From an uncultured bacterium (GTDB taxonomy: Bacteria > Omnitrophota > Omnitrophia > Omnitrophales > Abzuiibacteriaceae), in the NCBI GenBank assembly GCA_964387845.1, contig CAYLXA010000001.1:224001-288000 (forward strand): a DNA stretch of 64,000 bases, written 5' to 3'. Made by a program: the position numbers and the translations under genes. This document shows, in pieces, positions 5,648 to 53,353 of the stretch. Under the pieces are notes generated by a model, which was not told where the DNA came from, searched no databases, and saw only the letters and a list, made by a program, of their open reading frames with translations. Each line of letters starts with the position of its first letter. The first letter of the stretch is position 1.

Positions 5648-6877
5648 CTAGTTCTTACAATTGTTTCTTATTTGTGCTGGTTTTGTTAGCACCATGTTAG
5701 CACGGCTTCCAAAAACTTCTTCATCCAATCTCTTCCCTACACCTTCATAAACAACCGGTAGCAAGTGTCCATATCGGTCAAGTGTTGTCTGAATAGAAGC
5801 ATGCCCTAATTGCGACTGAATAAGCTTAATATTTTCCCCCTGTGAAATCAAGAGGGTCGTGTAAGTATGTCTAAGGTCGTGAAACCGCACCCTTCTTAAT
5901 CCAGCCTTTTTGAGAGCACTAGAAAAATCCCGTTTCACCAAATTATCGGGATCCAGCGGATCGCCGTTTACATTGCAAAATATCAGATCGTGAAGTTTGG
6001 GAGGGAACAACTCACGGTATAAATTCAGTCCTTTCTCTAGAACTTTCGACATAACGATTGTTCTTATAGACCTTCTTGATTTTGGTGTAATAAATTTCCA
6101 ACGGTTACAATTCGTTTCTTTAATTTCGCGCCAACAGCGCCAATATAAACTCCTTCTCACGAAAATTATCTTCCGATTCCAGTCGATGTCTTTCCACTGG
6201 AGACCAAGCAACTCCCCTCTTCTCATCCCCGTCAGCACAGCTGTTAAAATGATGGTTCTTAGAGGTTCATCAGAGTTCTTTAAGAGAAGTCTGATATCTT
6301 GCGGTGTAAGAAAATCCATTTCTCTTTGCTCTTCTCGAATTCTGTCAATATCTGCCGCTGGATTTTCAAAGATATATTTCCATTTTCGAGCATGATTAAA
6401 CATGGTTTTTAAAAGGGACAGGTGGTGATTTACCGTCTTGGCGCTTCTTTTATCGTTTAACTCTGAAATGAATTTCTGAATATCATGCGGACGGATACCT
6501 AAAATAGCTCGGTCTCCCAACGCCGGAACAATGGTTGAATTAATCATTGACTCATAATTTCGGAATGTTGAGTCTTTAATAGAAACTCGAGCATAACTGT
6601 CTAGCCATTTCTTTGAAAATTCGGAAAACAAAATCTTGGGTGGCGCAAAGAAAGTTCCTTTATTAACGGATGAGAGTATTTCACTCAGCCTAGCCTCTGC
6701 GTCCTTTTTCTTCGGGCCAATGCGTTCCCACTTTTGCAAACGGCCTGACCTGAATATGATATAGTAGGCTGCTGATTGATGGCTGCATTTGCCGACACCG
6801 TCAGTCGCGTTTTTCCTGCATTTTCCACACCGCCATACGATACTACCTCTTGCCATGACTGCCTCCAGGATTAGCAA
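5648..6877 (-). CDS. int: Tyrosine-type site-specific integrase
   Basis: The C-terminal catalytic region HDLRHTYTTLLISQGENIKLIQSQLGHASIQTTLDRYGHL carries the R..H..R..Y motif. The gene is adjacent to the att repeat. The last ~10 codons read through a TGTTAGCAC repeat. Confidence 0.9.
   Translation of the reverse strand: MLILEAVMARGSIVWRCGKCRKNATDGVGKCSHQSAAYYIIFRSGRLQKWERIGPKKKDAEARLSEILSSVNKGTFFAPPKILFSEFSKKWLDSYARVSIKDSTFRNYESMINSTIVPALGDRAILGIRPHDIQKFISELNDKRSAKTVNHHLSLLKTMFNHARKWKYIFENPAADIDRIREEQREMDFLTPQDIRLLLKNSDEPLRTIILTAVLTGMRRGELLGLQWKDIDWNRKIIFVRRSLYWRCWREIKETNCNRWKFITPKSRRSIRTIVMSKVLEKGLNLYRELFPPKLHDLIFCNVNGDPLDPDNLVKRDFSSALKKAGLRRVRFHDLRHTYTTLLISQGENIKLIQSQLGHASIQTTLDRYGHLLPVVYEGVGKRLDEEVFGSRANMVLTKPAQIRNNCKN
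5685..5706. promoter_or_regulatory. Direct repeat TGTTAGCAC-N4-TGTTAGCAC. The same motif recurs at the other island end, so this is a candidate arm-type integrase-binding site.
   Basis: tgttagcaccatgttagcacgg here; tgttagcaccgtgttagcacgg at 53332..53353. Both lie just inside the att repeats. Confidence 0.4.
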
Positions 6878-6907
6878 GATTTATTGTACCGTATTTCGGT
6901 CTATTTA

Positions 6908-7117
6908 TCAACGCTTTCTTACAGGACGGCCGGCTTTTCTCCGTGTTTGAAGGTAATATCTGATGGAAGGCTCTTCTATAAGCCAGATTTTCGCGGTGTT
7001 CGTTATTTGCGCTTCCCTGCCCCTGATTAATCGCTTTCGAAGTAGGCGACGCAGATAACCCGGTGTCAATTTGTACTTCTTTGATGCTTCGAGTGTCGTT
7101 AGCATGACGTTTGCCAA
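6908..7117 (-). CDS. Small basic helix-turn-helix protein of the excisionase/AlpA type
   Basis: 69 aa. A YLRRLLRKRLI..G HTH sits next to the integrase. The C-terminus is basic. Confidence 0.45.
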   Translation of the reverse strand: MANVMLTTLEASKKYKLTPGYLRRLLRKRLIRGREAQITNTAKIWLIEEPSIRYYLQTRRKAGRPVRKR

Positions 7118-7131
7118 AAGAAATATTTGCC

Positions 7132-7329
7132 TTATGATACATTATTTCTGCTCGTTTGGAAGAACCTTATTACCTCATCCTGATTGAAGCGAACGTACTT
7201 TCCCATCTTGATATGCGGAATTGCCTTTTGGCCCAAGCGTGTACGCTGATAAATCCACGTTTTAGGAACTCGCAATACTTTTGAAAGTTCACTAACTGTG
7301 ACCAAATTCTCAGACTGATTTCGTATCAT
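7132..7329 (-). CDS. Excisionase-family DNA-binding protein (HTH_17/AlpA-like). This is the probable recombination directionality factor.
   Basis: LVTVSELSKVLRVPKTWIYQRTRLGQKAIPHIKMGKYVRFNQDEV matches the Xis/AlpA pattern. Confidence 0.6.
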   Translation of the reverse strand: MIRNQSENLVTVSELSKVLRVPKTWIYQRTRLGQKAIPHIKMGKYVRFNQDEVIRFFQTSRNNVS

Positions 7330-8076
7330 TTAGGATTGCCCCGGCAAACGCGCATTTAACTCGCTATATGTCTGCATATCACCGATATCCTTCCAAATGC
7401 CTTCAATGCGCATTGCCACAGTCGGAACCATTCTATAAAGCCATGTAATGAAATCGCCGATCCTGTCGGGCTCATGCTTGTAGATTTTTAGATACTTATA
7501 AATCATGAAAGGAATTTCTTTCGGCAACAAGTAGACTCCAGCGCTCACTAAAGTCGATTTTGGCGCGCGGGGCTTTTCATCAAAACTTGTAATAATATGG
7601 TCTTCGTTCATTTCAATGACGCCGTACTTCTTGGCTTGTTCAATATTCTTAATGTCATAGCAAGCCAACACCGGTTTTGGCAGATGATGAAGCGCCTGCA
7701 GGATGAAATGATTCAGGGGGTAATCAAAATAATTGTCACTCGCCAAGACCAAATACTCCGAACCTCTCACTCGGGAGTCGCAGACTGCATAATAAAGGTC
7801 TAAAACAGCGCCGTTTCTTTCGTCATTGGAATTTATCCCATTATTCAATATATGAATTGGAAACACGTATTTTTGAAATGACTTCCAATACACAAATTGC
7901 TCATAAAACCGGTTGTTCGTCACAATCAAAACAGAATCTGGTTTAGTCTTGGCGACATTTTCCATCAAATGCTCCAACAGGTATTTACCACCAATATCAA
8001 GCAGCGCTTTAGGCTTACCGAGAGTTAATGGATAAAGCCTTGTCCCAAATCCTCCCGCGAGAATGATCGTGTTCAA
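7330..8076 (-). CDS. Sugar-phosphate nucleotidyltransferase (glucose-1-phosphate thymidylyl/uridylyltransferase-like)
   Basis: MNTIILAGGFGTRLYPLTLGKPKALL is the NTP_transferase signature. The stop overlaps the start of the next gene. Confidence 0.7.
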   Translation of the reverse strand: MNTIILAGGFGTRLYPLTLGKPKALLDIGGKYLLEHLMENVAKTKPDSVLIVTNNRFYEQFVYWKSFQKYVFPIHILNNGINSNDERNGAVLDLYYAVCDSRVRGSEYLVLASDNYFDYPLNHFILQALHHLPKPVLACYDIKNIEQAKKYGVIEMNEDHIITSFDEKPRAPKSTLVSAGVYLLPKEIPFMIYKYLKIYKHEPDRIGDFITWLYRMVPTVAMRIEGIWKDIGDMQTYSELNARLPGQS

Positions 8077-12083: not shown

Positions 12084-12980
12084 TTAAATCCCGTCCAGCA
12101 AAATCACCTGAATCGGGGTAAACCCGTCAACCGTGACGGATGTCTCGACTTTTACGTTCCGTAAATCCTGCCGGGCCTGGCCCGTTAAATTCTGGGCAAG
12201 GTTCATTCTGAGATTATCTTCCAATGAATAGGGGTCTCTGCTCACACCGCCTGCAAACAGACTCACCCCCGCAAGCGCTGTTTCGCCCACCGCTTTCAGA
12301 ATCCTCATGTCCGTCTGCTTGCTTACGCGCCCTTTGATGCCCGCTGAACCGTCCTCTGAAAGGGCAATCGCTCGAATCCGCCTTTCACTGCCGTCAGGCA
12401 TAATCAAAAGTTCAAAACGTACGTTGATGCGGTTGAGACTTTTTAAGACACCCGCTTCACCTAGAAACTTGGAATCCTTGGGGATAACAACTTTTCCTTC
12501 TGCTTCAAAATCTTTTGTAATAACCGCGGTTACAGGCGCCGCGACATTGAATGAAAAGATCGTATCCTTCACGAAGGCGGGAATCTTCGTGCCGGATGGA
12601 ATATTAAATTTCTGAAGCGTGGTTGATTGCGTGCCGTAAACGCTTTGGCTTCTTTTTTCCTCTTCCTTAAAAAGAAAGACATCGATATCCGTGTTGTAGT
12701 TTCTTGCTTTCCTGACCGGCCTTGCGCCGGAGAGTGCGGATGGTTTACCGTTTGATGCCTTAGGCGGCCCCGCAAAATCCGATTGGCCAAATATCTTCCT
12801 GCCGGCAGTCTCAGAATTCTTCGTGGGTTCCCCCTTATCCGTGCGCCTTTTCTGCTTGGCGCTTTGAGAATAGAAGAGAACAAGAATCATGAGCACAAGC
12901 AGTAAGACCAGCAAGACCCTGTGCTTCTTCGCCGCGCGCAACAATGTTAAGAGAGATGTCGATTTTCTAAATTCAGTCAT
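12084..12980 (-). CDS. trbI: T4SS component TrbI/VirB10
   Basis: N-terminal TM. A Pro-rich linker. The C-terminal domain IPSGTKIPAFVKDTIFSFNVAAPVTAVITKDFEAEGKVVIPKDSKFLGE...IMPDGSERRI matches the TrbI/VirB10 barrel. Confidence 0.8.
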   Translation of the reverse strand: MTEFRKSTSLLTLLRAAKKHRVLLVLLLVLMILVLFYSQSAKQKRRTDKGEPTKNSETAGRKIFGQSDFAGPPKASNGKPSALSGARPVRKARNYNTDIDVFLFKEEEKRSQSVYGTQSTTLQKFNIPSGTKIPAFVKDTIFSFNVAAPVTAVITKDFEAEGKVVIPKDSKFLGEAGVLKSLNRINVRFELLIMPDGSERRIRAIALSEDGSAGIKGRVSKQTDMRILKAVGETALAGVSLFAGGVSRDPYSLEDNLRMNLAQNLTGQARQDLRNVKVETSVTVDGFTPIQVILLDGI

Positions 12981-12990
12981 AATTATTTCC

Positions 12991-14007
12991 TCAATCTAGC
13001 CAGCGAAAGCCTTCGATCCGTAAGTTGCGCTCTCCCTCATCTTCAAACAGGAGGACTACCGGCTTTTCGCCTTTCTTCAAGGATCGTCTGTCAAATTGAA
13101 TGATGCCGTACTGATAAGAATCCGGAGCTACGCTTTTTTCACTCTTAAGATCAGACGGCAGTTCGACCAAGCCTTCTTTGACTTTGCGCAGACCCAAAGA
13201 TTTTTTCTCATAAGTCTGAAGCCCTACGACCATTTCCCTGATTTTGTAATCTGTTTTCGATAAATTACGAATACTGAACCTAAGATACGCTTTCTCGCCA
13301 ATCGTGGAGATGGTTAATAGGTTGAGCCTCACACCGCCCTCCTCTGCGTAATCTTTCAGCTGAACCGCTTCATTTCCTTTTTTGATTTCCTCTTTCAATT
13401 TTTCTTCGGACAAGTCCTCGGCTTTCGCATCAAGCGCTTCTTCCTTCTGTTTAAACTTTTCTTTTATAGCCGTTTCGGTTTCGTTAACCCGCTTTTCAAA
13501 TGCGTTGTCTACGATCATGTCCTCATCCGGATACCTGAAATCAATTACGAAATCAGCTGTTTCGGGTTTCCCGACCGTAACATCAAAAGTAAGCCGCGAG
13601 GATTGCGTCATGATAGTCAGATTTGTCCGCGCATCAGGATCATCCGTGACCGGTTTTATAATGACTTCCTTCTCAAAAACGCCGACTTTGAAGAGTTCCT
13701 GATCTCCGATAAACACCTTGAGCGCGGGCTCTGGCAGATCGATTGTGGAAGCATAACCGAGAGCTGTTTGGAGTTTGTAAACCACGTTCGGCCTCATGCT
13801 TGCGGAGTAAATCCTCTTCTCGCTAACGGAATTCCTATTGATCCGTTTTCTTTCGGCTACAGCGTCCTGCGGCACCTGGTCTGGGTTGGCGACGCTAAGC
13901 TCTGCTTGCTCTACGCTATTTAAATCCTTCCCAAATTCCTCTGCGCAATAGCCATCGTGCGCAAGTGCAATTAAAATTACTGCGATTAAAGTAAAGCATT
14001 TCATCAT
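12991..14007 (-). CDS. trbG: T4SS component TrbG/VirB9
   Basis: Signal peptide. A ~340-aa secretin-like outer-membrane-complex protein. The position between trbF and trbI matches the P-type order. Confidence 0.65.
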   Translation of the reverse strand: MMKCFTLIAVILIALAHDGYCAEEFGKDLNSVEQAELSVANPDQVPQDAVAERKRINRNSVSEKRIYSASMRPNVVYKLQTALGYASTIDLPEPALKVFIGDQELFKVGVFEKEVIIKPVTDDPDARTNLTIMTQSSRLTFDVTVGKPETADFVIDFRYPDEDMIVDNAFEKRVNETETAIKEKFKQKEEALDAKAEDLSEEKLKEEIKKGNEAVQLKDYAEEGGVRLNLLTISTIGEKAYLRFSIRNLSKTDYKIREMVVGLQTYEKKSLGLRKVKEGLVELPSDLKSEKSVAPDSYQYGIIQFDRRSLKKGEKPVVLLFEDEGERNLRIEGFRWLD

Positions 14008-14663
14008 GATTTCTGTTCATCCTTTCTTGACAAATCATTGAGAATCAACTCTTTGTAACCATCCACAAGAAGACCTTCGGGCGTGTTTGAACTTCGGGAG
14101 ACTTTCTTTAAAACGATATCTGCGCGGAATAAGATTTCCTCCCGGAAGGACGGTTCGTCATATCTCGAGATTCGCCTGACACCAAGGAGCGAAACAACCG
14201 CGGCATCGGGTGCATCACGCTCGATTTTCGTTTCTTTAAATTCAAGTTGGGTGTCAATTTGAGCGGTCTTCAGTTTTTCAACCAAGCCCGAATCAATAAG
14301 TGATTTTCTAGCCTCATGTTGAAGCCTCGTGGTCATTAAATTGAAGGCTTCCGCGAGGTCTTTTGTGACTGTGTACGAATTAAAGCCCGTATATCTGAGC
14401 GTAAACCGTTTTGATAGGGCAATGATTTCATGGTGCGTGGGCTCGTTATGTTTTGGCAGGTCTCGAATTACTTGTGCGCCCTCAACTTCTGAAACTCTGA
14501 TGACTACCGGAGGTTTCATGCCTAATATGACGGAACCCGCAAAGGCAAGCAGCACGATGAAGGCAAGTATAAGGTTGGCTTTCCTTAAGAATTGAATTTC
14601 CATTTCGAGGTCGCCAAAAGCTTCAAAGTAGCGGCGTTTGACCTTTGCAATGATTTCGCTCAT
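14004..14663 (-). CDS. trbF: T4SS component TrbF/VirB8
   Basis: Bitopic protein with an N-terminal TM and a periplasmic NTF2-like domain, at the expected position. It shares 4-nt overlaps with its neighbours. Confidence 0.6.
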   Translation of the reverse strand: MSEIIAKVKRRYFEAFGDLEMEIQFLRKANLILAFIVLLAFAGSVILGMKPPVVIRVSEVEGAQVIRDLPKHNEPTHHEIIALSKRFTLRYTGFNSYTVTKDLAEAFNLMTTRLQHEARKSLIDSGLVEKLKTAQIDTQLEFKETKIERDAPDAAVVSLLGVRRISRYDEPSFREEILFRADIVLKKVSRSSNTPEGLLVDGYKELILNDLSRKDEQKS

Positions 14664-15505
14664 GAATTTCCTCCTGAGTAATTCGTCTGCCCTCTGCGGC
14701 TAGGAGTGAACCGGACAGCCGGAATGTGCCGCACGATTCTTTCCATGATTCTTCCGCCGATGCCGAACACTCGTCCGCCCGCCTGCGTGAAACCTTCTGC
14801 GCCCCGGATCATCATCAAAGAAATCATGGGCACAAAGAAAAGTATGATCAAAATGATGATGACGTTCATCGCAAACAAATCAAGATTGAGCGTTTGGGTA
14901 TTGGTGTAAAACTCGAAGAAATTAAGTTCGAAGAGAATACGGACAAAAAGAGACAACACGACGTTCCAATTCAACACTTCAAAGAGCCAGCGTACCCATA
15001 TCCGTGCCATGCCGGGCTGGAAAATACCGACACCCAAGAAGACAGGCCCTGAGATATAAAGCGCTGAAAGGAAAACGATCCTCACCCATCCAAATCCCCG
15101 AAGAATTGCGTAGGATATGTTGTAAGTTCCCTGCATCATCAAATCGAGAAAAGTCATCTTAAGAAGCGCAAGCATTCCCAGGTCATGATTTTGACGATAA
15201 GCCGTGAAAATCTTCTGTATCTGGTCTTTAAATTCTTCAGCCGGCATGAAGAAATTGGCAAGCAAATCCATTCCTCTTGAAACTTCTTCAAAGAAGGGCG
15301 TATAAATTGAATAAAGGCCGGTGATGAGCAGGACTCGGACGAAAAGTCCCGCGTAGTCGCTCCGCCCCTCCATTCCGTGCAAAAATTCTTTAATCAAGGC
15401 GAGTGTTAGAAACACGAAGATAAAACTGTAGCCGACTTCCCGAACCTCATGATAGAAGGCCGCGAAAATAGTGATGATTTCTTGGGTGGTGGGAAGTGAA
15501 CTCAT
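14660..15505 (-). CDS. trbL: T4SS component TrbL/VirB6 (polytopic inner-membrane)
   Basis: 5-6 TM helices, Trp-rich, at the expected position. Confidence 0.6.
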   Translation of the reverse strand: MSSLPTTQEIITIFAAFYHEVREVGYSFIFVFLTLALIKEFLHGMEGRSDYAGLFVRVLLITGLYSIYTPFFEEVSRGMDLLANFFMPAEEFKDQIQKIFTAYRQNHDLGMLALLKMTFLDLMMQGTYNISYAILRGFGWVRIVFLSALYISGPVFLGVGIFQPGMARIWVRWLFEVLNWNVVLSLFVRILFELNFFEFYTNTQTLNLDLFAMNVIIILIILFFVPMISLMMIRGAEGFTQAGGRVFGIGGRIMERIVRHIPAVRFTPSRRGQTNYSGGNS

Positions 15506-16296
15506 CAGCCCGGCCTTCCCAAACTTTCAATACCAAGCTGCATCTCGCGCATATATTTAAGACGCTCCCGCTCGAAGCGCTTTTCATCGCGCGACACTTG
15601 CTCTAATTTGGTTGCTTCAACCTCAAGCAACTTGGCGAATATTTCCTGATTCTCTTGCGTAACGACAATCAATTTTCCGGAGGCATCCGCTGAAAGTCTT
15701 GCCGCCCCTTTTGGACTTGCCGTCTGCGATAATTCTTGAATGGTCTCGCCCGCTTGCTTTGTTTCATCTGAGCGCTTTCTAATTTCATGCGCCATTAAGT
15801 AAGCTTCGCCCACCTGCGATTCATCAAATGTGATATAGGGACGCTCCACAGATTGAGGGTCCATTCCATGAATGGTTTCAATATAGGACTTGATGCCTGA
15901 CGGGTCGCCGTAACCTTCAAGTATGGTCCCCAAATTTCGGATGGCGTCTTGTTCAACGGACGGTTCGAATCCAGCAAGGAATCCATCCCGAAATGTCGAC
16001 TGTGAATCTCTGAAGGCCCGCGCCGCATCCTGGACAAAACTTCTCACGAATTCTTCGATGCCAGCGTTAAAGCGCATCATTTCCTGATACGTGTTTTCAA
16101 GTTCCGTAAGCTGATCGAATAATACGATAATTTCCTGTGCAAACTGATTTTCCATCAAGGAATTGCGAAGTTCATTCAGCGCGGCATTGACAAAATCAAT
16201 CACAGGCAGATCCGCCTTCGCTGTGCCGGGGCAGACGGCTAGGCTTGCTGCTAAGTAAAGCGAGATGACCGTCAACCTTAATTTTGGTGATTTCAT
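15505..16296 (-). CDS. trbJ: T4SS component TrbJ/VirB5-like
   Basis: Signal peptide followed by an all-coiled-coil ~260-aa protein, at the expected position after VirB4. Confidence 0.55.
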   Translation of the reverse strand: MKSPKLRLTVISLYLAASLAVCPGTAKADLPVIDFVNAALNELRNSLMENQFAQEIIVLFDQLTELENTYQEMMRFNAGIEEFVRSFVQDAARAFRDSQSTFRDGFLAGFEPSVEQDAIRNLGTILEGYGDPSGIKSYIETIHGMDPQSVERPYITFDESQVGEAYLMAHEIRKRSDETKQAGETIQELSQTASPKGAARLSADASGKLIVVTQENQEIFAKLLEVEATKLEQVSRDEKRFERERLKYMREMQLGIESLGRPG

Positions 16297-18773
16297 ATGG
16301 CAGGAGCCTCCTTACGCCACGTGATTCCTCGCGGATATTTACCCGCGAGTATTCTCAGCCGTTCCAACTCACTCAAACTTGGCTCCATTGCGCGGAGCCT
16401 TTCCTCCTCGATTTGGTCGTTGGGCTCTGTTGTTGCAATCCAGTAGTCAAGGGGCGAGGGCTCAAGCTTAGCCGTGACAGCTTTGTTAAAAAACTTGATG
16501 AAGATTTCGGAGAAAACACCGGGCCTTATTTCCAATTCTTCGCAAGCGCTGACCTCATTCGGATTCAGGTCAAACTTAGACAGCAATTCATGCCCCTTTT
16601 GAAGCTTTAAAATGTATTTCACGTAGGAATTGGAAAGAATGGCGGGTGCCGCCTTTGATTGAAGAAAATCCACAGGGCTTTGGCTGATTGAAAGAACGAG
16701 ACCGTTTGTCTTTCTGGCTGTTCTGTAAAGCTCTTCAATCAGCTTTGAGCCGACATCGTCATTAAAAAAGCGCCATCCTTCGTCAATGACAATGATTTTG
16801 CGGAGCGAAATGTCACCCAGTTTTCTAGCAATGGCGGATCGGATCACAAAAAAAAGAATGGATTGCAGTTCAGGGTGCTGTGAAAGCTTGCCCAAGTCAA
16901 AAACAATGAATCGGTTATCAAAAGTCAGGCTGCTTTGCCGGTTCAAGAGCCTGCCAAAGCGACCTTCGGTCCACATGCTTAAATTCTTTGAGAATTGATA
17001 CGCTTTCCGCTTGTCCTCGTCATCACCCGCCGCATAATTTCGAAGAATCATTTGCACATCGCCCAAAAGAGGTCGGTGTGTATCCTGAATGCTTTCGTAG
17101 ACTTTCAGAATTGATTGTTCAAGAATTCGAAGCTCTGAACTTTTCACTCTCTCCCTCTCAGAGACCATCTTTTCAAGCAGGGTGCTCAGAAAACCTAAAA
17201 GATCGGCGTTCACTTCGCCGGGCTTTGGGAATAATTGACGTTTCTCAGGAAATAGGTTAAGCGCATATTCTTCCGTGCAGTCGATTTGCAAGTAATGACC
17301 GTCAAATAAACGCGCAAGTTTTTTATAACTGCCGCCCATATCGATTACGATAACGTGATTCCGATCTCCTGCGATGAGAAAACTGCTCAGCAAATGATTC
17401 GCAGTGAATGACTTCCCGGAACCCGTGCTCCCAATCATGACTGCATGCTTCGCCGGAAGCGACGGATCAAAAAGATTAAGCGCAAACCCTTCGTCTTCGT
17501 GAGTTTTGAGCAAAATATCGAAGTCATCCGTTCCCTTCCATTCTTCCCCGAGCGGCAATAGATGGCTCAATGCGCCTGTTAAGACAGGAAACACGGATTG
17601 ATTTTGATCGGCCTGCAGGGGTAAATGTGACAGAAACAACGTGTCATGCTCCAAATGATCGAAGATTCCGACTGAGCCGCCCAGTTTCGGGAAAGCTTTC
17701 AAAACAGCTTCCTTCTTACGAGCAAGCGCCGCTTCGTCCTTTGCCTTAATGAGCACAGAAAGCGAGATATCAAAGACGCTTTCGCCTTGCTCGGCCATTT
17801 GATGAAGAAATGATTCGTATTGGGACGCCTTTTGCCTTGCAAAGTGATCCTCTGAAATCCGGAAGAAGGCGTTTGCGTGCGCGAAATTGGCTCTGATTCG
17901 AAGCTTGCCAATTTCTTTGTCCTGGTCTTTCTTCCTAAGAGTAATCATCCATTCTGAATCATCCGGCATAAGGCGATCAAATGACTTAATCATTTTCAAG
18001 CCGACATGGCCGGGCAGCGTCCTTAAATTAGCAGCCGAATGAAAATAACCGTCCATATAAAGCGAATTTCTGTAAATTTTGGGCGGATGAAGCAAGAGCC
18101 GCGACCTCAGCGTTTCAAACTTGGGATTGGTTAATGGATTCTCCTGAAACGCGTCTTCGTATCGGACAATCTGAGATAGTGAAGGATTAAGTTTCCTGTA
18201 GTACTCGCGGATAACGTCCATTGCGGAAAGTCTCTCGACCGTGACACCCAAGGCCTTCAACGCCGTGATGATCAACGACTCAGCTTGAAGCAGATAAGCC
18301 TTGCCTTCTTCATGATTTGAGCGATGAAATGATCTTGACCGCTTCCGTTTTTTCTCAGGGCTTAAATGGCTTAAAAACAAAAAAATTTCCTTTTTTACCA
18401 AACGCGAATTTGTTAGTACATTTACTTTCTCCCGCACGATCACGTTGACCAATGGGTCTTGGCGTGAGGTGTTCGCTTGACACCTCCCGAGCATCTCATC
18501 GTCGCCCCGGCTTGAGCGTTTAACGAATGACAATAAAATCCCTGAGGGCAGCCGATTCAGCAGTTTCTGAAGTTCATGCATGAACGCGACTATTTCGGCG
18601 TCATCATAAAGAAGGTAATCAACACCTGAAACTTTATAGACAAGCGCCATTCGCCCTGAAACCCCGACGGCTAAGCCATCTTCTTCAACAGCCATGAGAT
18701 CAAGTGCCGGGAAAAATGGAACGCGTTGCAGTGAGTCGCTCAATTCTTTAATCGTCAGCAATGTTTCCATCAA
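16293..18773 (-). CDS. trbE: T4SS ATPase TrbE/VirB4
   Basis: 826 aa. Walker A GSTGSGKSF, and a Walker B/DExx region. This is the CagE/TrbE/VirB4 architecture. Confidence 0.85.
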   Translation of the reverse strand: MMETLLTIKELSDSLQRVPFFPALDLMAVEEDGLAVGVSGRMALVYKVSGVDYLLYDDAEIVAFMHELQKLLNRLPSGILLSFVKRSSRGDDEMLGRCQANTSRQDPLVNVIVREKVNVLTNSRLVKKEIFLFLSHLSPEKKRKRSRSFHRSNHEEGKAYLLQAESLIITALKALGVTVERLSAMDVIREYYRKLNPSLSQIVRYEDAFQENPLTNPKFETLRSRLLLHPPKIYRNSLYMDGYFHSAANLRTLPGHVGLKMIKSFDRLMPDDSEWMITLRKKDQDKEIGKLRIRANFAHANAFFRISEDHFARQKASQYESFLHQMAEQGESVFDISLSVLIKAKDEAALARKKEAVLKAFPKLGGSVGIFDHLEHDTLFLSHLPLQADQNQSVFPVLTGALSHLLPLGEEWKGTDDFDILLKTHEDEGFALNLFDPSLPAKHAVMIGSTGSGKSFTANHLLSSFLIAGDRNHVIVIDMGGSYKKLARLFDGHYLQIDCTEEYALNLFPEKRQLFPKPGEVNADLLGFLSTLLEKMVSERERVKSSELRILEQSILKVYESIQDTHRPLLGDVQMILRNYAAGDDEDKRKAYQFSKNLSMWTEGRFGRLLNRQSSLTFDNRFIVFDLGKLSQHPELQSILFFVIRSAIARKLGDISLRKIIVIDEGWRFFNDDVGSKLIEELYRTARKTNGLVLSISQSPVDFLQSKAAPAILSNSYVKYILKLQKGHELLSKFDLNPNEVSACEELEIRPGVFSEIFIKFFNKAVTAKLEPSPLDYWIATTEPNDQIEEERLRAMEPSLSELERLRILAGKYPRGITWRKEAPAI

Positions 18774-19033
18774 ATTTCCTCCCGTGTCTGTGTGAAATAG
18801 GCGGGCATGAAAAAATAACGAATCAAATTCTTAGTAAACCTGTCTGCCTTATTCCTTTTGTAATATCTGAGAAATAAATAGACCGCGAAGACAAATGAAA
18901 GATTGACCATGAGATTCTTTGAGCCGAGAAAGACCATAAGATAGACCGCTAACAAACCAAGCAAGTCCATCCATTCAAGACCGAAGAATTTGTTTTTTTG
19001 TGTAATCATTGGATACATCGTTATTGGCTTCAT
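18770..19033 (-). CDS. trbD: T4SS component TrbD/VirB3
   Basis: 87-aa two-TM protein immediately upstream of VirB4, with overlapping stop and start. Confidence 0.6.
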   Translation of the reverse strand: MKPITMYPMITQKNKFFGLEWMDLLGLLAVYLMVFLGSKNLMVNLSFVFAVYLFLRYYKRNKADRFTKNLIRYFFMPAYFTQTREEI

Positions 19034-19034
19034 G

Positions 19035-19337
19035 CTAAAACCCCGTCACATTCTTTATTAAGTCAAGCACTGCTCGGGCAAGCATAATGAGCGCTCCGCC
19101 CCCTGCTGCCAGGGCACCGCGCCTCATGCCTTGTTCATTTCCAAGCGCCATTGAAATACCAGATACCGCAATTCCGATCACAAGTATTCCAGGACCTACG
19201 CTCTGTATTAGAAAAGTCCCAACAGCATCCAGGAAATAGCCCAACTCTTCTTGATTCTGCGCCTCCGCATACGCAATGCCCGCGTGAAGATAAATAGCCG
19301 TCAGTATCACAAGATATTTCGCAATCATTTTCCGCAT
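19035..19337 (-). CDS. trbC: T4SS pilin TrbC/VirB2
   Basis: A 100-aa product from MRKMIAKYLVILTAIYLHAGIAYA (signal peptide) with two hydrophobic helices. Consensus RBS AAGGTG. The longer ORF-track start at 19430 runs through a conserved non-coding motif and is rejected. Confidence 0.65.
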   Translation of the reverse strand: MRKMIAKYLVILTAIYLHAGIAYAEAQNQEELGYFLDAVGTFLIQSVGPGILVIGIAVSGISMALGNEQGMRRGALAAGGGALIMLARAVLDLIKNVTGF

Positions 19338-19358
19338 ATATTCACCTTGGGGGATAGC

Positions 19359-19376
19359 GGGGTCAATTTTGACCCC
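19359..19376. promoter_or_regulatory. Perfect palindrome GGGGTCAATTTTGACCCC in the trbC leader. It is either an operator or a 5'-UTR hairpin.
   Basis: 8-bp arms around a TT centre, between the conserved promoter motif and the trbC RBS. Confidence 0.4.
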
Positions 19377-19412
19377 GCCCTTTGGAACAGCCGCATGCGC
19401 TGTAAAAGTCCC

Positions 19413-19462
19413 CTCATAGATGTTGTGCAAAAACGGGCATTTCGTAACAAGAAATTTAAAAT
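19413..19462 (-). promoter_or_regulatory. Conserved ~50-bp promoter/operator element, copy 1 (upstream of the trb operon)
   Basis: ctcatagatgttgtgcaaaaacGGGcatttcgtaacaagaaatttaaaat is about 88% identical to 26639..26688. The second copy is upstream of the traG/relaxase operon. Confidence 0.55.
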
Positions 19463-19468
19463 CCCATC

Positions 19469-19837
19469 TTAAAATTTATTTTTCAGTATCTGGATTCCCA
19501 CATATTTCTTGAGTTTGGTCGCAGCCCTGCGTATATGCATCCGTACGATCGCGCTATCTGAAATATTCAACTCTTCTGCTATTTCCAGATTGCTCAATCC
19601 TTGCAATGTTAATCTGACGCACTCACGCTCTCTCTTAGACAGCCCGGCACGACTTATGGCTCGTCTTGCCATTTCTTTCTGTTCATTTTCAATCAGCACC
19701 TCGACCGGCGAGGGCTGAGTGGCCACCTTCTTCAGAATTTCTTGATGCAAATCGGTTTTTGGGTCATTTTCGATCTTCTGAAAATCGACACCGATACGCA
19801 CCGTTCTCTTTGTTTTCCATTGAGTGTTGTTTTCCAT
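19469..19837 (-). CDS. Small sigma-70 region-4/LuxR-type HTH regulator
   Basis: RERECVRLTLQGLSNLEIAEELNISDSAIVRMHIRRAATKL is a sigma-70 r4 HTH. The gene is immediately upstream of the trb promoter motif. RBS GGAGGTGG. Confidence 0.6.
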   Translation of the reverse strand: MENNTQWKTKRTVRIGVDFQKIENDPKTDLHQEILKKVATQPSPVEVLIENEQKEMARRAISRAGLSKRERECVRLTLQGLSNLEIAEELNISDSAIVRMHIRRAATKLKKYVGIQILKNKF

Positions 19838-19940
19838 TTTCCACCTCCATATGGTGGAAAATGGGCGAATACCTCCTTCTATAACTCTTTAACTAATAAA
19901 TACTTACGATAATTTTATAGGCGAATATACGGATAGACAC

Positions 19941-19991
19941 AAAAAAAGACACCTGTAAGCGGACGAGGGCGGAAGGAATTCCGCCCTCGTT
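19941..19991 (-). terminator. Rho-independent terminator after the 19998..20312 gene
   Basis: 11-bp stem GACGAGGGCGG/CCGCCCTCGTT. On the minus strand it is followed by a T-run (forward aaaaaaag). Confidence 0.55.
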
Positions 19992-19997
19992 TCACAC

Positions 19998-20312
19998 TTA
20001 ATTCCTAATCCTCCGGATTGTTGAGATCCAAGCTTGAAGATCGCGATTCAAGAATCGCAACCGTTCAGCAATGTTTGCCATTGGAGGCTTCTGCTCGATG
20101 ACCTCAATACTCTTTGCGCCTGCCGAATTCGGCTGTCTGGCTTGGAGCCATCCCGCAAACGATTGGGCAAAGAAGCAAATTGCTAAGACCACCGGAGCGA
20201 TGAGAAACATTAAATTGATAAAGGCAGCCAGCATGCACTTCAGCAAGAAAATGGTGAAATTCCGCAGCCTGCCTAATGCCTTTTTTATTTCGGTTAGAAT
20301 GAATTGTTTCAT
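19998..20312 (-). CDS. Small membrane protein of unknown function
   Basis: 104 aa, two hydrophobic helices, followed by a terminator. Confidence 0.4.
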   Translation of the reverse strand: MKQFILTEIKKALGRLRNFTIFLLKCMLAAFINLMFLIAPVVLAICFFAQSFAGWLQARQPNSAGAKSIEVIEQKPPMANIAERLRFLNRDLQAWISTIRRIRN

Positions 20313-20324
20313 TTTGAATTATCC

Positions 20325-21362
20325 TTATACGAGTTGATATTGCCGGTTTTGAATTTCCAAGTTACTTTCCTCCTTTTCGTACTCCGTTAGATAATCAAAG
20401 CTGCAATCTTCACAGAATGAGCCGCCGGTTGCTTCGTCATAAAAGAGTTTGCCGGCTTCCACTTGGTCTTTACACAGTGAACATAGAAGCTTTGATTTTT
20501 CAGTGATGTTTGAATCTTCGAGAAATCCCATATACCGAAGCTCATCAAAGCTGTAGAGATAGGGATTCCCCGGCACTTTGAAGTCATCCTCTGTGAGCGA
20601 CTTGCGCATCGGGTTCTCCATCTCGCAAGGTATTTTTCGCATGGGACATTTTTCAGAAAGTTCTTCAACGTTAATTTTGTAAAGCACGTTGGATTGAATC
20701 TCGAGAAAATTGCCTTTCATGAAGTTTCTTGCAAGAGCGTATTGCAAGTGGATTTTCTCGCTCGACCAAAGCAAGGTTTTGAACTTAGGGACATAAACAG
20801 CGTAAAGCGTCCGTTCAACATTTCGGATGAGATAAAGCGTTTTCCTGTCATCCGTTTGCATGAATGCCAACGCAAAATCCCCAAACATCATCGAAAGCCG
20901 TTCAGCGACTTCTCTGTCGGAGGAGGCGCCATCCAAAACACGGAATACCGCCTCGCTATCGACGTCAGTTTTTTGCTCCGTGTTAAATCGTTTGAGAAGT
21001 TCAGTTCGATTTAGAAAATGCCCATTGTGCACACCGGCAAAATTCTCCGAGACAAACGGATGACAATTCCGGGATGAGATTGCTCCTACTGTGGCAAGCC
21101 GCGTATGGCCCAGAACAATGAGCGTATCCGCACCGATTTTCTTGATGACGTTACGCATCCGGACGGTGCGCAAAAGCTCGCTCGCTGGTCTGGCTTCCTT
21201 GAAAACGGTCATGCTCTCTTCTGCTGCTGTGAGCAATCCAGTTCCGTCTTGACCTCTTGTTTCATTGAGAAAAGCCAAATCCATCACTACGCCTTGAAGC
21301 CTCAGTTTCTCTGCTCCGCTTAAGGGCAGGGCCTCTCTCACAAATCCGAATATTCCACACAT
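20325..21362 (-). CDS. Class-II (Ntn-type) glutamine amidotransferase, YafJ-like, with a C-terminal zinc ribbon
   Basis: MCGIFGF gives the N-terminal nucleophile Cys2. The GATase-II fold continues through ...HTRLATVG...NCHPF. The C-terminus CSLCKD...CEDCS forms a CxxC-Xn-CxxC ribbon. Confidence 0.7.
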   Translation of the reverse strand: MCGIFGFVREALPLSGAEKLRLQGVVMDLAFLNETRGQDGTGLLTAAEESMTVFKEARPASELLRTVRMRNVIKKIGADTLIVLGHTRLATVGAISSRNCHPFVSENFAGVHNGHFLNRTELLKRFNTEQKTDVDSEAVFRVLDGASSDREVAERLSMMFGDFALAFMQTDDRKTLYLIRNVERTLYAVYVPKFKTLLWSSEKIHLQYALARNFMKGNFLEIQSNVLYKINVEELSEKCPMRKIPCEMENPMRKSLTEDDFKVPGNPYLYSFDELRYMGFLEDSNITEKSKLLCSLCKDQVEAGKLFYDEATGGSFCEDCSFDYLTEYEKEESNLEIQNRQYQLV

Positions 21363-21410
21363 GGTAAGTCTCCTTAGGTTTAATTGGGATTGAACTACTG
21401 AAGTGATAAA

Positions 21411-22685
21411 TTACTTTTGAACAGCTGCCAGAGTGGGAGCTGTTTCGAAGAACTTCTCGGGATGAAACTTTAAGATCCTTTGCTCGATGTAATTCCGAAT
21501 CTTCGTCCGGAATTTCAGCAGCACGCAGAATGCCTCAAACTGTTCTTTGAATGAAGCAAACTCCGAAAACCTGAAGTCTCTTTGACGCTTTGACTCGTCT
21601 ACGATCGCTTGGCAGATCACAATGAAATTTGTAATCTTAAGCGGGTTCGTTGTTCCCGAGTGATAGCGAAACTCCACTGAACGCCTGAAGAACCAAGAGT
21701 GAATGTTGACACCGAAGTATCTTGAGTTGTCAAACTTAGACTTCGTATCCACTCGCGCATTCCTTCTGCCGTACCAGAGCCGCTTTAAATCCATCTCATC
21801 TTTGACTTTGAACCGGAACCGTGATTTGGGAAATCGATTGAGCGGCACGGAGTAAGAACCGGAAAACCTTGATTCCGGAAGCATGGCATAAATCACCGGC
21901 TCAAACGCCACCGCAATCTTCAGCAATTTCTTGATGTTCTGAAAATCAAGATCCCGCCCATCAATGTGGACATGAAGACCGCAGCGCTTGTCCACGAAGT
22001 AATTCCAGTCAAGCAGCTTTTGAGTGAAAATGGCGATTTCGTTAAAGCCGTCATCGCCTTGAAGAATCGGGCTCGCAAATTCCATGCCCCAATCTCCCAG
22101 AGAGCCGTCATGCTGTTTGCTCCAAGCGCCCACTTCATCAACCGGAAGATGCATTTCCTCATCCCGAAGTATGGCTTCAATTTCCACGCCGTATTTTCTT
22201 TTTGATTTGCACAGTTTGAATTTAGCCGACGAAAATTCATGGTGCTGAATCAGCTCGCCGTTCTCCACCATGCGGTCGTAACAGTCTTCACAGTAAGTTG
22301 ACTCCCCTCTTCTAAAGCAGCGGGTAGAGTCAACCTCAGAACCGCAATCCTCGCAGAAGATTATGTTTTCAGATTCACAGGCGGAGCAGTAATAGACGTC
22401 CTGCAAATCTGAATAACGAGCGTCCTCTGACGCCGCATATTCCCCGCAGGCATTGCATTCCCTGTAATTGGCGTGAAAGCAGCTTTCACAAAGCCTCAAC
22501 CCTGCAACTGCAAAGGATTCGTCAAGCCACATGGGACGTTCGCATTTCCCGCACGGCTTCACACGTTTTTCAAAACACGCCGGGCAAAGATACCGGTCTT
22601 GATAGGTTTTAAACAAATCGACGTTTACGACAACACTGCAGGACGGGCATTTCTTTTCTTCTGCCCGTATTTCCAAAAGTTCCAT
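21411..22685 (-). CDS. Glutamine-synthetase/GCS2-like carboxylate-amine ligase (amidoligase) with an N-terminal array of four zinc ribbons
   Basis: Eight CxxC pairs lie in the first ~150 aa. They are followed by YGVEIEA, GMEFASP, GLHVHIDG and SVEFRYH, which resemble the E-x-E / H-x-H / EfR motifs of YbdK/GCS2-type ligases. Confidence 0.55.
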   Translation of the reverse strand: MELLEIRAEEKKCPSCSVVVNVDLFKTYQDRYLCPACFEKRVKPCGKCERPMWLDESFAVAGLRLCESCFHANYRECNACGEYAASEDARYSDLQDVYYCSACESENIIFCEDCGSEVDSTRCFRRGESTYCEDCYDRMVENGELIQHHEFSSAKFKLCKSKRKYGVEIEAILRDEEMHLPVDEVGAWSKQHDGSLGDWGMEFASPILQGDDGFNEIAIFTQKLLDWNYFVDKRCGLHVHIDGRDLDFQNIKKLLKIAVAFEPVIYAMLPESRFSGSYSVPLNRFPKSRFRFKVKDEMDLKRLWYGRRNARVDTKSKFDNSRYFGVNIHSWFFRRSVEFRYHSGTTNPLKITNFIVICQAIVDESKRQRDFRFSEFASFKEQFEAFCVLLKFRTKIRNYIEQRILKFHPEKFFETAPTLAAVQK

Positions 22686-22709
22686 GGCTCATCTCCTTTT
22701 CTATTGTTT

Positions 22710-22898
22710 TCAAACTGTCTGGTGATCTTGGCTTTGGTTTTTAACTGACATGCGATCTCTGCGCTTTCGCTCATAGAGACGCTTTAATATCCACAAGGGA
22801 ACGAACGTCCAATACCCTCTTGGCCTTCCTGTCCACTCCGAAAGCTGGTCCGCATAAACTGATTTGTCTTCTGAGTCAAAAATGATGTAGGGATTCAT
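22710..22898 (-). CDS. Small hypothetical protein (62 aa)
   Basis: Good RBS AAGGAG upstream. It lies between the amidoligase and a hairpin. Confidence 0.35.
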   Translation of the reverse strand: MNPYIIFDSEDKSVYADQLSEWTGRPRGYWTFVPLWILKRLYERKRRDRMSVKNQSQDHQTV

Positions 22899-22965
22899 GG
22901 CAAGCTCCTTAAGTGAGAGGGCGGAAACTTTTTATTTCCGCCCTCTTTGTGTGACATGGCTTTGA

Positions 22966-23061
22966 TCAGCGCAGGACAATGGCCCAGCCGAACCGAACAA
23001 AATCTGTAATAAGATCCGGCATCAGCATTGCTTTGGCGCGTGAAACAATCAGCGTCTTCAT
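22966..23061 (-). CDS. Possible 31-aa micro-ORF, MKTLIVSRAKAMLMPDLITDFVRFGWAIVLR
   Basis: Strong RBS AAAGGAGG 7 nt upstream of the ATG. The ORF is flanked by two GC-rich hairpins. Confidence 0.25.
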   Translation of the reverse strand: MKTLIVSRAKAMLMPDLITDFVRFGWAIVLR

Positions 23062-23141
23062 GGAATAAACCTCCTTTGAAAAGACAAAGGGCGAAGAATC
23101 GCTTCTCCGCCCTTTGCTTAATAGTTTGATCGAAGTTCTTA

Positions 23142-23369
23142 CTAGCTGACTTGGACTTGCTGTTCAGCTCTGCGCAAACCTTCAATCAGTTCGCCGATGA
23201 GCGCACAGTTAATTGTGACGCCTTTCTTCGTCGGCCGCGCTTCGCCCGTTACGGCATCAGCGAAAAAGACCCTGACATCAACGTAATCACGGTCTTTGTA
23301 CTTGCCGACTGAGATTTTAACTTCTTCGTTTTCATTACGTTTAAAACTGTAAATTTCCTGCTTTTCCAT
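23142..23369 (-). CDS. PC4-like ssDNA-binding protein (second paralogue)
   Basis: KYKDRDYVDVRVFFADAVTGEARPTKKGVTINCALIGELIEGL is the PC4/YdbC signature. RBS AAAGGAGA. Confidence 0.6.
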   Translation of the reverse strand: MEKQEIYSFKRNENEEVKISVGKYKDRDYVDVRVFFADAVTGEARPTKKGVTINCALIGELIEGLRRAEQQVQVS

Positions 23370-23452
23370 TTGAATTCTCCTTTTTTTGATTTAATGTTGG
23401 TTTATTTGAGCTTTAGTGTTTGGTCTCTTTCGCTTGAACCTCCTTTCTAAGA

Positions 23453-23493
23453 ACAAAAAAGGGGAAGAAGCCTGCTGAACAGACCTCTTCCCC
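23453..23493 (-). terminator. Rho-independent terminator after the coupling-protein gene
   Basis: GGGGAAGAAG...CTCTTCCCC hairpin. On the minus strand it is followed by TTTTTTG. Confidence 0.55.
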
Positions 23494-23536
23494 TCTTTTG
23501 ATTTAATGTTAAATTAGGACTTAATTAGCGATTAAC

Positions 23537-25360: not shown

Positions 25361-26088
25361 CCCAAGATGGAGCGTAGAGGAATTCTGGATGCCTTATTCA
25401 TCAGCTCCGCATCTTTCTTTTTCAGTAAGAGCTCATCATAGAGCACAAAGCAAAGCTTATTCTGAGGAACTTCAATGTCCAATAGCCAGCTCTTCACCAT
25501 GTGCCAAGACAGGATATAAATCACCAGGGTGAAATCATTTAGACGGCTGTATTTCGCAAACCTTGTCTCATACCTTTCCCGTTCCCTGAAGGAATTTTCA
25601 AGTTCAATCGCAATTCTCTGCCCGCTTACTTCGATGACCGCGTCAGGAAAAAATTCCCGGTCGTGCTCTTCTTTTCTGACAACCCGTTCGCTCAGCCATT
25701 TAACACCCTTAAAGTCCCGAAACAGGCACCGCAACGTCGCCAACTTGAGCGTATGCTCTATCGTATATTGGTTGATATCCCCGATTTCTCCAAAGCCACG
25801 GTCCAGCCCTTTCTCTTTCAAGACATCTATCCCCTCAGCCGTCAGCAGAAAAAGTCTCACTTTTTCTGATTTCGCCTTCTGGACATCCAAAGTCCTAATA
25901 AATCCTGCATCAACAAGCTTGCTCAAACGCTGCCTTGCAGTTCCTGACCTCACTTCGCTGTCAGGCCAAAATGCCGAGTAAATTTGATTCGCCATCATGT
26001 ACTTTTGTTCATTCAAGTACGTGAATATCTCGATATCACGCTCTGTAATGACGACACGCCGCAATTTATCCAATAAGTTTTCAGCCAC
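25357..26088 (-). CDS. Replication-relaxation (Replic_Relax) family protein, the candidate relaxase/mobilisation protein
   Basis: N-terminal wHTH (IFTYLNEQKYMMANQIYSAF...RLSKLVDAGFI). C-terminal FFPDAVIEV...IAIELENS matches the PDa...lEvD core of the Replic_Relax family. It overlaps traG by 4 nt. Confidence 0.5.
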   Translation of the reverse strand: MAENLLDKLRRVVITERDIEIFTYLNEQKYMMANQIYSAFWPDSEVRSGTARQRLSKLVDAGFIRTLDVQKAKSEKVRLFLLTAEGIDVLKEKGLDRGFGEIGDINQYTIEHTLKLATLRCLFRDFKGVKWLSERVVRKEEHDREFFPDAVIEVSGQRIAIELENSFRERERYETRFAKYSRLNDFTLVIYILSWHMVKSWLLDIEVPQNKLCFVLYDELLLKKKDAELMNKASRIPLRSILG

Positions 26089-50088: not shown

Positions 50089-50093
50089 AACAA

Positions 50094-52502: not shown

Positions 52503-52528
52503 AGGGGTCTCCTTTCCACAATTAATGA

Positions 52529-53152
52529 CTATTTTTCAATGGCTTCTCTTTTTCGAATATTTTCACGGACTACGCGCAAGAAATCATCCACGGAGAAAGG
52601 TTTAAAAAGACAATCATCAACTCCAAGTTCTATTGCCTGTGTCTGTGGGTCGCCTTCATGAAAACCAGTGATCAACATTTCTCCTGCGCGAGGCCTACCT
52701 AGACTCTTTTGCGCCTTCCGAATTGCTCGAATGGTATCAAGTCCATTCATTTTCGGCATGCGAATATCGGAGATGATTAGATCGAAAAACGTTTCTTTAA
52801 TTTTCTCAATTGCGGATTCTCCGTTCTCTGCTGTTGTGACGCCATAATTCGCTTGTTTAAGCACTTTCGACAGTGAATTGCGAATAAGCTGGTCATCATC
52901 AATCAAGAGAATTTGTCTTATTTTGCCTCTGCTCTGCCGCAATTTACCCTGGCCAATAATACGAGTTACATCATTTGCATCAAAACGCAAAACACCGCCG
53001 ATCCGAATGGGAACTAACAAGCCTTTCTTTATCCAAACAAATATGGTGGAGCGATTCACTGAAAGGATCTCGGCCACTTCTTCCACACGGAGAAATTTTT
53101 GTTCCGACGCAGTATCACTTTTCAATTTCTTCTCTTTTGCCATTGTGAGCAA
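52529..53152 (-). CDS. Excisionase-family HTH (HTH_17) fused to a receiver domain, next to attL
   Basis: N-terminal LRVEEVAEILSVNRSTIFVWIKKGLLVPIRIGGVLRFDANDV is a Xis/AlpA-type HTH. C-terminal ILLIDDDQLIRNSL...LIISDIRMPKMNGLD...KP is a canonical REC domain. Confidence 0.65.
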   Translation of the reverse strand: MLTMAKEKKLKSDTASEQKFLRVEEVAEILSVNRSTIFVWIKKGLLVPIRIGGVLRFDANDVTRIIGQGKLRQSRGKIRQILLIDDDQLIRNSLSKVLKQANYGVTTAENGESAIEKIKETFFDLIISDIRMPKMNGLDTIRAIRKAQKSLGRPRAGEMLITGFHEGDPQTQAIELGVDDCLFKPFSVDDFLRVVRENIRKREAIEK

Positions 53153-53168
53153 TTCCTCAATAGTTAAA

Positions 53169-53220
53169 AGTCTAATTTAGTCTTAATTAGTCTTAATTAG
53201 TCGCTAATATAACTAATATC
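53169..53220. repeat. Tandem degenerate 10-mers (TCTTAATTAG x ~4) immediately upstream of the HTH-REC gene
   Basis: tctaatttag tcttaattag tcttaattag tcgctaatat, read directly from the sequence. Confidence 0.5.
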
Positions 53221-53331
53221 TCGGACAAGTCAACAAAAACTTTAAAAAAATTTTCATCGATCTGTCAAGTCTGACATAGACCACGTCTTTGATGATAAGC
53301 GAGAAGCATGTGTGGTGAGTTTTTCAAGGTT

Positions 53332-53353
53332 TGTTAGCACCGTGTTAGCACGG
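53332..53353. promoter_or_regulatory. TGTTAGCAC direct repeat, the attL-side copy of the candidate arm-type site
   Basis: tgttagcaccgtgttagcacgg; compare 5685..5706. Confidence 0.4.

Follow-up and report, generated by a model that had tools for sequence, protein, structure and literature searches.

Putative arm-type integrase sites in paired 11-bp-spaced repeats inside both ends of a tRNA-Met-integrated conjugative island of Omnitrophota

Introduction

What is the role of a 22-bp sequence that stands once just inside each end of a 48-kb genomic island? The island lies in a 64-kb stretch of contig CAYLXA010000001.1 (positions 224,001 to 288,000) from an uncultured bacterium of the Omnitrophota (assembly GCA_964387845.1); this whole stretch is called the window hereafter, and coordinates refer to it. 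The island is inserted at a tRNA-Met gene, and a gene for a tyrosine integrase (Int, encoded by int) lies at its far end. An earlier note on the window had proposed that the two copies are arm-type sites of this integrase. The analysis supports that proposal in silico, through the occurrence of the repeats on both arms, their recurrence in relatives, a predicted N-terminal domain of the integrase and a layout shared with the attP of phage L5. Judging from sequence, we consider it likely that the four GTGCTAACA units contained in the two copies are arm-type binding sites of the heterobivalent tyrosine integrase of an integrative conjugative element (ICE). As such, the feature belongs to a well-known kind, of which this new element provides a further case.

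Two repeat pairs and the rebuilt attP

The features that concern the recombination module directly are the following.

5684..5705, minus strand: putative integrase-proximal arm-site pair, CC-GTGCTAACA-TG-GTGCTAACA on the sense strand of the tRNA and int
53332..53353, minus strand: putative tRNA-proximal arm-site pair, CC-GTGCTAACA-CG-GTGCTAACA on the sense strand; noncoding
5524..5565, minus strand: distal copy of the att repeat, a displaced tRNA-Met 3' portion (anticodon loop through discriminator) with CCA retained behind it
53424..53465, minus strand: copy of the att repeat in the intact tRNA-Met gene; core/crossover region
53423..53498, minus strand: tRNA-Met(CAT) target gene (ARAGORN, one tRNA found)
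53377..53412, minus strand: intrinsic terminator hairpin supplied by the element, 15 pairs and a T run, between the core and the tRNA-proximal pair
5648..6856, minus strand: tyrosine integrase P0001, 402 amino acids from ATG, with Phage_int_SAM_3 and Phage_integrase domains
6623..6856, minus strand: predicted N-terminal domain of the integrase, residues 1-78 (AlphaFold2)

The 22-mer TGTTAGCACCRTGTTAGCACGG is present in exactly two copies in the window with up to three mismatches allowed, whereas none of 100 dinucleotide-preserving shuffles contained any match to it. Both copies are on the plus strand and hence in direct orientation, as the earlier note had said, and not in the inverted orientation expected of the terminal inverted repeats of a transposon. 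The note had placed the right copy correctly at 53332-53353, but its position for the left copy (5685..5706) was off by one, the true span being 5684-5705. Each 22-mer is made of two exact units of the 9-bp motif TGTTAGCAC with a spacing of 11 bp (TGTTAGCAC-N2-TGTTAGCAC), and the sole difference between the 22-mers is one spacer base (A/G), which leaves them identical at 21 of 22 positions. Single TGTTAGCAC units with up to one mismatch occur elsewhere in the window 10 times against 8.5 expected, which is the chance level; no extra copy of the motif with up to one mismatch was found within ~300 bp of either island end. The unit is nearly palindromic (TGCTAACA matches its complement TGTTAGCA at 6/8 positions), and the right copy contains a small perfect palindrome, CCGTG-TTAG-CACGG.

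The left pair is embedded in int codons 384-391 (R-A-N-M-V-L-T) of the open reading frame 5648-6856(-), which bears out the reported overlap with the integrase 3' end. It lies 118 bp from the att direct repeat (5565 to 5684), and the right pair lies 70 bp past the tRNA 3' end (53353 to 53424), in agreement with the ~120 and ~70 bp proposed before. By the earlier note's own account the idea would fail if the repeat belonged to a longer terminal duplication unrelated to recombination. However, the 80-bp flanks on each side of both copies are 34-35% identical, which is the random level, so the repeat is not a visible part of such a duplication, and identity between the two ends is limited to ~24 bp at the repeat pairs.

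A 42-bp direct repeat, TAGCGGGGGCCGGATTTGAACCGACGACCTTCAGGTTATGAG, with copies at 5524-5565 and 53424-53465, marks the two ends of the 48-kb insertion, and int adjoins the left copy, toward which it is transcribed. On the tRNA sense strand the rebuilt attP reads int 3' end, GTGCTAACA-tg-GTGCTAACA, 118 bp, 42-bp core, terminator, GTGCTAACA-cg-GTGCTAACA; it spans ~270 bp, the two pairs start 252 bp apart and the 118-bp spacer is AT-rich. It thus has one pair on each side of the core, in direct orientation and with a sequence distinct from that of the core. This agrees with the usual place of arm-type sites, on both arms at tens to ~150 bp from the crossover. The target tRNA-Met looks initiator-like, with a C1-U72 mismatch read from the sequence. 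The displaced fragment (5517-5527) ends in ...CCCCGCTA-CCA, and the 3' end supplied by the element (53417-53427) reads ...CCCCGCTA-GTTTCG; the latter being without CCA, insertion strips the encoded CCA from the tRNA-Met.

The L5 plan and other known systems

The attP of L5, taken as a positive control and scanned with the same script as the loci described below, reads TGCAACTC-ctg-TGCAACTC, ~125 bp, tRNA-Gly-like core, terminator hairpin, TGCAACTC-ttg-TGCGACTC, again with an 11-bp spacing. The window element follows the same plan, with units of ~8-11 bp at 11-bp spacing, one such pair per arm, ~120 bp on one side, a core from a tRNA 3' part and a terminator before one pair. The counterparts of its two pairs are the L5 arm-type sites P1/P2 and P4/P5 and, likewise, the putative pairs of Giles and of the Cluster K and L mycobacteriophages. 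Cluster K phages have two pairs of 11-bp repeats around the common core and a terminator between the core and P3 (PMC3203893; also PMC10865867), and the arm-site pairs of L5 and Giles are in direct orientation (PMC3203893). The integrase of the window is 25% identical to that of L5 over the core-binding and catalytic domains (E 3e-16). Its identity to many other phage integrases is ~30%, and it is matched by 1028 Mycobacterium phage records.

There are also differences from L5. The motif is TGCAACTC in L5 and GTGCTAACA in the window; the L5 attP lies upstream of int, whereas one pair of the window overlaps the int 3' coding end; and L5 has the additional arm sites P3, P6 and P7 ('several additional', PMC3203893), whereas only 2+2 sites are detectable here. 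L5 is moreover an actinophage, unlike the window element, an ICE of an uncultivated lineage whose integrase has a Cys-rich insert in its N-terminal domain. All these differences from known systems, viz., the overlap with the int 3' end, the 2+2 sites and the Cys-rich insert, are modest.

The likeness to lambda consists in a predicted additional N-terminal domain of β-sheet plus helix, in arm sites that are unlike the core sites and are split between attL and attR after integration, and in the transcription of int toward attP. The lambda arm-type sites P1, P2 and P'1-P'3 are bound by the N-terminal domain of Int, but they form an asymmetric 2+3 set with mixed use in integration and excision, in contrast to the symmetric 2+2 exact repeats seen here; and the target of the window element, unlike that of lambda, is a tRNA gene. 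Tn916/Tn1549 and CTnDOT are likewise conjugative and have an arm-binding tyrosine integrase that acts on repeats of the DR2 type inside both ends (PMC8138268). They differ in that they do not use a long identity core to target tRNA genes and that heterology in the overlap is tolerated. An arm-binding domain is found in most tyrosine recombinases of ICEs and phages (PMC8138268).

The integrase and its N-terminal domain

That the protein is a tyrosine recombinase, with the catalytic residues R-K-H-R-H-Y, is shown by Pfam (Phage_integrase, E 7.9e-28), Foldseek and an alignment of 30 homologues in which R212, K259, H326, R329, H352 and Y362 are invariant. Its homologues number in the thousands, the nearest being 50-57% identical (its own NCBI entry aside), and its closest relatives are from metagenome-assembled genomes (MAGs) of Omnitrophota and Planctomycetota. 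In an AlphaFold2 model made with the 30-sequence alignment (mean predicted local distance difference test score, pLDDT, of 83), an N-terminal domain precedes the helical core-binding domain, which is followed by the catalytic domain. The predicted topology of the N-terminal domain is β1 (4-10), a Cys-rich insert, β2 (29-37), β3 (40-47) and a helix (50-66), a β3-α order like that of known arm-binding domains, and the same fold was obtained when the domain was modelled alone. Foldseek aligned the full-length model with full-length lambda Int (1z1b_B, over 355 columns, the target having 350 residues; also 5j0n), and for the core-binding and catalytic part the top structural match was Tn1549 Int (6emz, E 2.6e-15). 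On the basis of the model, residues 1-78 are presumed to be the arm-binding domain.

The insert between β1 and β2 (Int residues 10-26; window 6779-6829) contains C10, C13, C24 and H26. The three cysteines are kept in at least 90% of the sequences in both a 30- and a 25-homologue alignment; H26 reaches the same level in the alignment of 30. The insert may be a zinc ribbon. It is lacking in P0074 and in relatives whose int lies beside the tRNA.

The tail of Int from residue 387 (387-402, encoded by the arm pair and beyond) is predicted to be disordered, with pLDDT <50. In the 30-sequence alignment the tails past the conserved DxQVFG are variable, and several contain ANxxLT(K/E). This tail arises because the DNA repeat is read in two frames, where GCT-AAC gives A-N and CTA-ACA gives L-T.

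Tandem repeats in related integrase loci

We collected 239 loci with relatives of the integrase from genomes, viral contigs and metagenomes (2.85 Mb), the genome hosts being MAGs labelled Omnitrophota, Planctomycetota, Zixibacteria, Ignavibacteria, Nitrospirota, Actinomycetota and others. A script listed all exact repeats of at least 8 nt at offsets of 10, 11 and 12 bp, and a test interval from -30 to +250 bp relative to the end of the catalytic domain was defined at the loci, amounting to 57.5 kb or 2% of the sequence. The scan of viral contigs found relatives that are all distant (at most 38% identity) and yielded three examples of a contiguous attP.

There are 263 tandems with an offset of 11 bp in the 2.85 Mb, and 90 of these fall in the test intervals, against ~3.6 expected as estimated from the tandem rate outside them; offsets of 10 and 12 bp gave only 9 tandems each. 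Counted by locus, an exact 11-bp tandem follows the catalytic domain in 83/211 loci, as compared with 5/219 equal intervals upstream of int and with ~8/237 in a random-interval control, and most of the tandems are 0-30 bp from the VFG motif. A search for the repeat in related islands, which the earlier note had suggested as a check, was therefore strongly positive. The repeated unit is highly variable among elements, with 63 distinct 8-mer starts, while the copies agree within an element; examples of the unit are GTGCTAACA, ATCTAACA, TGTTAGAAAA, TGTTAGCAAA, CATTAGCAAAC, GGTAGCAAAAC, CCGTTAGAA, CCGCAACC, CTGCCTGC and AGTCGGGAAAA. The position is thus kept among relatives while the sequence changes with the integrase, for which shared ancestry is one possible cause. 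Motif classes track the classes of N-terminal domain even across differing tRNA targets: N-terminal domains of the MACxRKRR type pair with the motif GGTAGCAAA at both tRNA-Met and tRNA-Phe, and the GTGCTAACA motif is found at tRNA-Met and tRNA-Thr.

Wherever both arms were captured, a second pair with a matching motif is present in direct orientation (12/12 relatives, of which 9 are integrated and 3 are phage attP), and no counter-example was found among relatives with both ends captured. The loci are listed here.

L161/L001: (C/G)TGCTAACA, tRNA-Met, both arms
L011 and L003: ATCTAACA, tRNA-Met, both arms
L006: GTGCTAACA, tRNA-Thr-type core, both pairs noncoding
L186: TGCTTACAA, both arms
L023: CCGTTAGAA, tRNA-Leu, both arms and a third tandem upstream of int
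L019: imperfect TGATGACA/TGCTTACA, tRNA-Ala, both arms
L202: TGCAAGC, both arms
L124, L128 and L132: viral contigs with a contiguous phage attP, pairs 219-265 bp apart

In these relatives one pair stands ~115-120 bp from the core at its anticodon-loop edge, and the other 56-92 bp past the tRNA 3' end; the pairs of L124 and L128 have a tRNA-like 3' fragment and a terminator between them. A terminator at the matching position is also seen in L011 and L003, as in L124, L128 and L5. Two gene arrangements occur. The first, which includes the window, runs tRNA, element, int, arm pair and displaced tRNA fragment; the second runs int, arm pair and an intact tRNA on the opposite strand, and there the motif is on the strand opposite to int. 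The 8-mer TGCTAACA is on the tRNA sense strand in the window and also in L017 and L018, in which int is inverted with respect to the core; the orientation of the motif relative to the tRNA is clear in cases of an exact TGCTAACA or TCTAACA. The sites are independent of int coding, as they are noncoding at the far arm and, in L006, at both arms.

Several of these loci have peculiarities of their own. In L005, TGCTAGCA occurs twice near the tRNA and TGCTAACA twice at a distance of 12 kb, and no direct repeat was detected. The third pair of L023, with the motif CGGTTAGAA, is at 9616-9634, ~385 bp upstream of the int start, and L031 has five consecutive GGTAGCAA units after int (1212-1262); L031 had been considered as an exception without a far-end pair and was rejected as such, its remote direct repeat being on the tRNA side away from the element. 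The displaced tRNA-Met 3' fragment of L161 (= L001; 11275-11385) is split by ~60 bp, between ...CTCATAACCTTGAGGT and ...AAATCTGGCCCCCGCAACCA. In L006 (1745-1810, 11220-11293 and 12387-12440) the tRNA-Thr-type junction is no longer called a tRNA by ARAGORN, and the island brings its own complete tRNA-Thr(CGT) directly after int, reminiscent of 'tRNA-dependent lysogeny' (PMC10865867).

Weighing the alternatives

Four observations weigh against taking the repeats as integrase arm sites. Among the closest relatives (at least 45% identity), 26/47 are without an exact tandem right after int; other genes follow int there and the arms are elsewhere or imperfect, so that the position at the int tail is common, not universal. 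Shared ancestry would account equally well for the co-variation of motif and integrase lineage, as the same is to be expected of any int-linked cis site. Calls of orientation in divergent relatives such as L186 are uncertain because the motif is nearly palindromic. Finally, Pfam found no arm-binding family in Int residues 1-83 at E values up to 10, and the N-terminal 70-80 residues of three family members gave only spurious weak matches at the same threshold; by fold, too, the assignment of the domain to a known arm-binding family is weak.

This last point bears on the alternative that fares best, though we regard it as unlikely, namely that another accessory protein binds the repeats and the integrase binds the core only. 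The genes that come into question are these.

7132..7329, minus strand: HTH_17 (excisionase-type) protein, 65 amino acids, adjoining int
6908-7117: small open reading frame near int
52529-53152: gene of an HTH_17-plus-receiver regulator near the other island end

HTH_17 genes are found beside int and beside the other end, and the sites of excisionases, or recombination directionality factors (RDFs), also typically consist of direct repeats arranged in tandem and in phase with the helix. Sites of lambda-type RDFs, however, are usually on one arm, between arm site and core, whereas the repeats of the window are on both arms, symmetrically, and are the outermost repeats detectable. The feature also accompanies this family of integrases, amid unrelated neighbouring genes, through many phyla and types of element, among them the phage attP sites of L124, L128 and L132, and the L5 sites of the same architecture have been reported as arm-type sites of Int (PMC3203893).

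Less probable still is that the repeats are sites at the element ends that regulate expression, as a roadblock or operator on int read-through or at the promoter of the regulator, and serve no part in synapsis. The left pair is indeed in the int 3' end, transcription of int in the circle would cross this pair, the core and the terminator, and the third tandem of L023 is upstream of int. Yet the geometry of ~115-120 and 56-92 bp relative to the core is kept whatever the adjacent genes or the orientation of int, which ties the role to the recombination site and not to a single promoter. A secondary regulatory role alongside that of arm sites is possible.

We give very little credence to the view that the left copy is kept as the coding sequence of a functional C-terminal tail of Int (...ANxxLTK...), the right copy being fortuitous or vestigial. 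Several homologues do share ANxxLT(K/E) past DxQVFG, but the two units are read in different frames, which indicates conservation at the DNA level, and the tail is predicted to be disordered. Moreover, the second copy is noncoding and nonetheless identical at 21/22 bases, both copies of L006 are noncoding, and where int adjoins the intact tRNA the motif and int are on opposite strands. That the repeat arose by chance or is the remnant of a longer terminal duplication, for which nothing but its short length speaks, is refuted by the shuffles, the flanks at random identity and the recurrence of the arrangement with other motifs in dozens of independent elements.

A proposed mechanism

Returning to the reading as arm-type sites, we infer that the repeats are bound by Int, specifically by its N-terminal domain, and that four integrase protomers would take part, each with its N-terminal domain on one arm unit and with its core-binding and catalytic domains on core half-sites at the tRNA anticodon stem-loop. 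With the 11-bp spacing, the two units of each pair would face the same side of the helix. The AT-rich spacers would bend, with or without a host factor, such that arms and core are bridged in an intasome, by which attP and the chromosomal tRNA-Met gene would be recombined. Strand exchange most likely occurs at the anticodon-loop end of the 42-bp identity block, because, by a rule reportedly due to Williams in 2002, identity blocks from the anticodon loop to the tRNA 3' end denote anticodon-loop crossovers. Integration would split the pairs, one ending up inside the int-side junction and the other inside the tRNA-side junction, as is seen in the window. Excision would reunite them, probably with the aid of the HTH_17 protein of 7132-7329, a candidate RDF, and the circular ICE would then be transferred via its own type IV secretion system.

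Only after excision, in the circle, does the element's tRNA terminator come to be ~190 bp downstream of the int stop. It is conceivable, though doubtful, that the arm sites double as a form-dependent feedback device on int, in which transcription of int would be obstructed by Int sitting on the 3' end of its own gene, and the 3' ends of int mRNA would differ between the integrated and excised states. Such a device may be likened to the sib-like retroregulation of lambda, here built from arm sites and a tRNA terminator.

Other features of the element

The element has a conjugation module at 12084..26088.

12084-12980, minus strand: TrbI/VirB10
12991-14007, minus strand: CagX/VirB9
16293-18773, minus strand: VirB4/TraC ATPase
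23537-25360, minus strand: type IV coupling protein
25357-26088, minus strand: Replic_Relax protein (relaxase-like)

Because of these genes (VirB10, VirB9, VirB4, the coupling protein and Replic_Relax) the island is, by predicted gene content, an ICE and not a prophage. Its cargo (20325-22685, 27005-30919 and 33980-40192) includes a pair of amidoligase and glutamine amidotransferase, a DUF4062/STAND NTPase of 1304 amino acids and an Rhs/TcdB/SpvB-type toxin of 2070 amino acids with FG-GAP repeats; two-component genes are also among the cargo. At 53170-53209 there are four head-to-tail 10-bp units, GTCTAATTTA GTCTTAATTA GTCTTAATTA GTCGCTAATA, which have no relation to the arm motif. They sit between promoter-like sites on the minus strand (53268-53239 and 53233-53206) and the start of the regulator gene at 52529-53152, and the array looks like an operator array.

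Implications

The full recombination module of a 48-kb conjugative element from an uncultivated lineage is delimited here, comprising the core, two arm pairs, the terminator, the integrase and a candidate excisionase, and the arm pairs back up the boundaries of the island. The concept of how such integrases work is unchanged by the finding. If the feedback logic outlined above were true, it could extend to many relatives in which the arm pair is at the int tail. More broadly, the survey suggests a rule for a very large, phylum-spanning clade of L5-like integrases that target tRNA genes, in which an exact 11-bp tandem directly follows the catalytic domain and its twin tandem is found either ~250 bp off, within attP, or at the opposite island end. 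Such a rule could aid in delimiting islands and prophages in metagenome bins, and in choosing minimal attP fragments for integrase-based tools.

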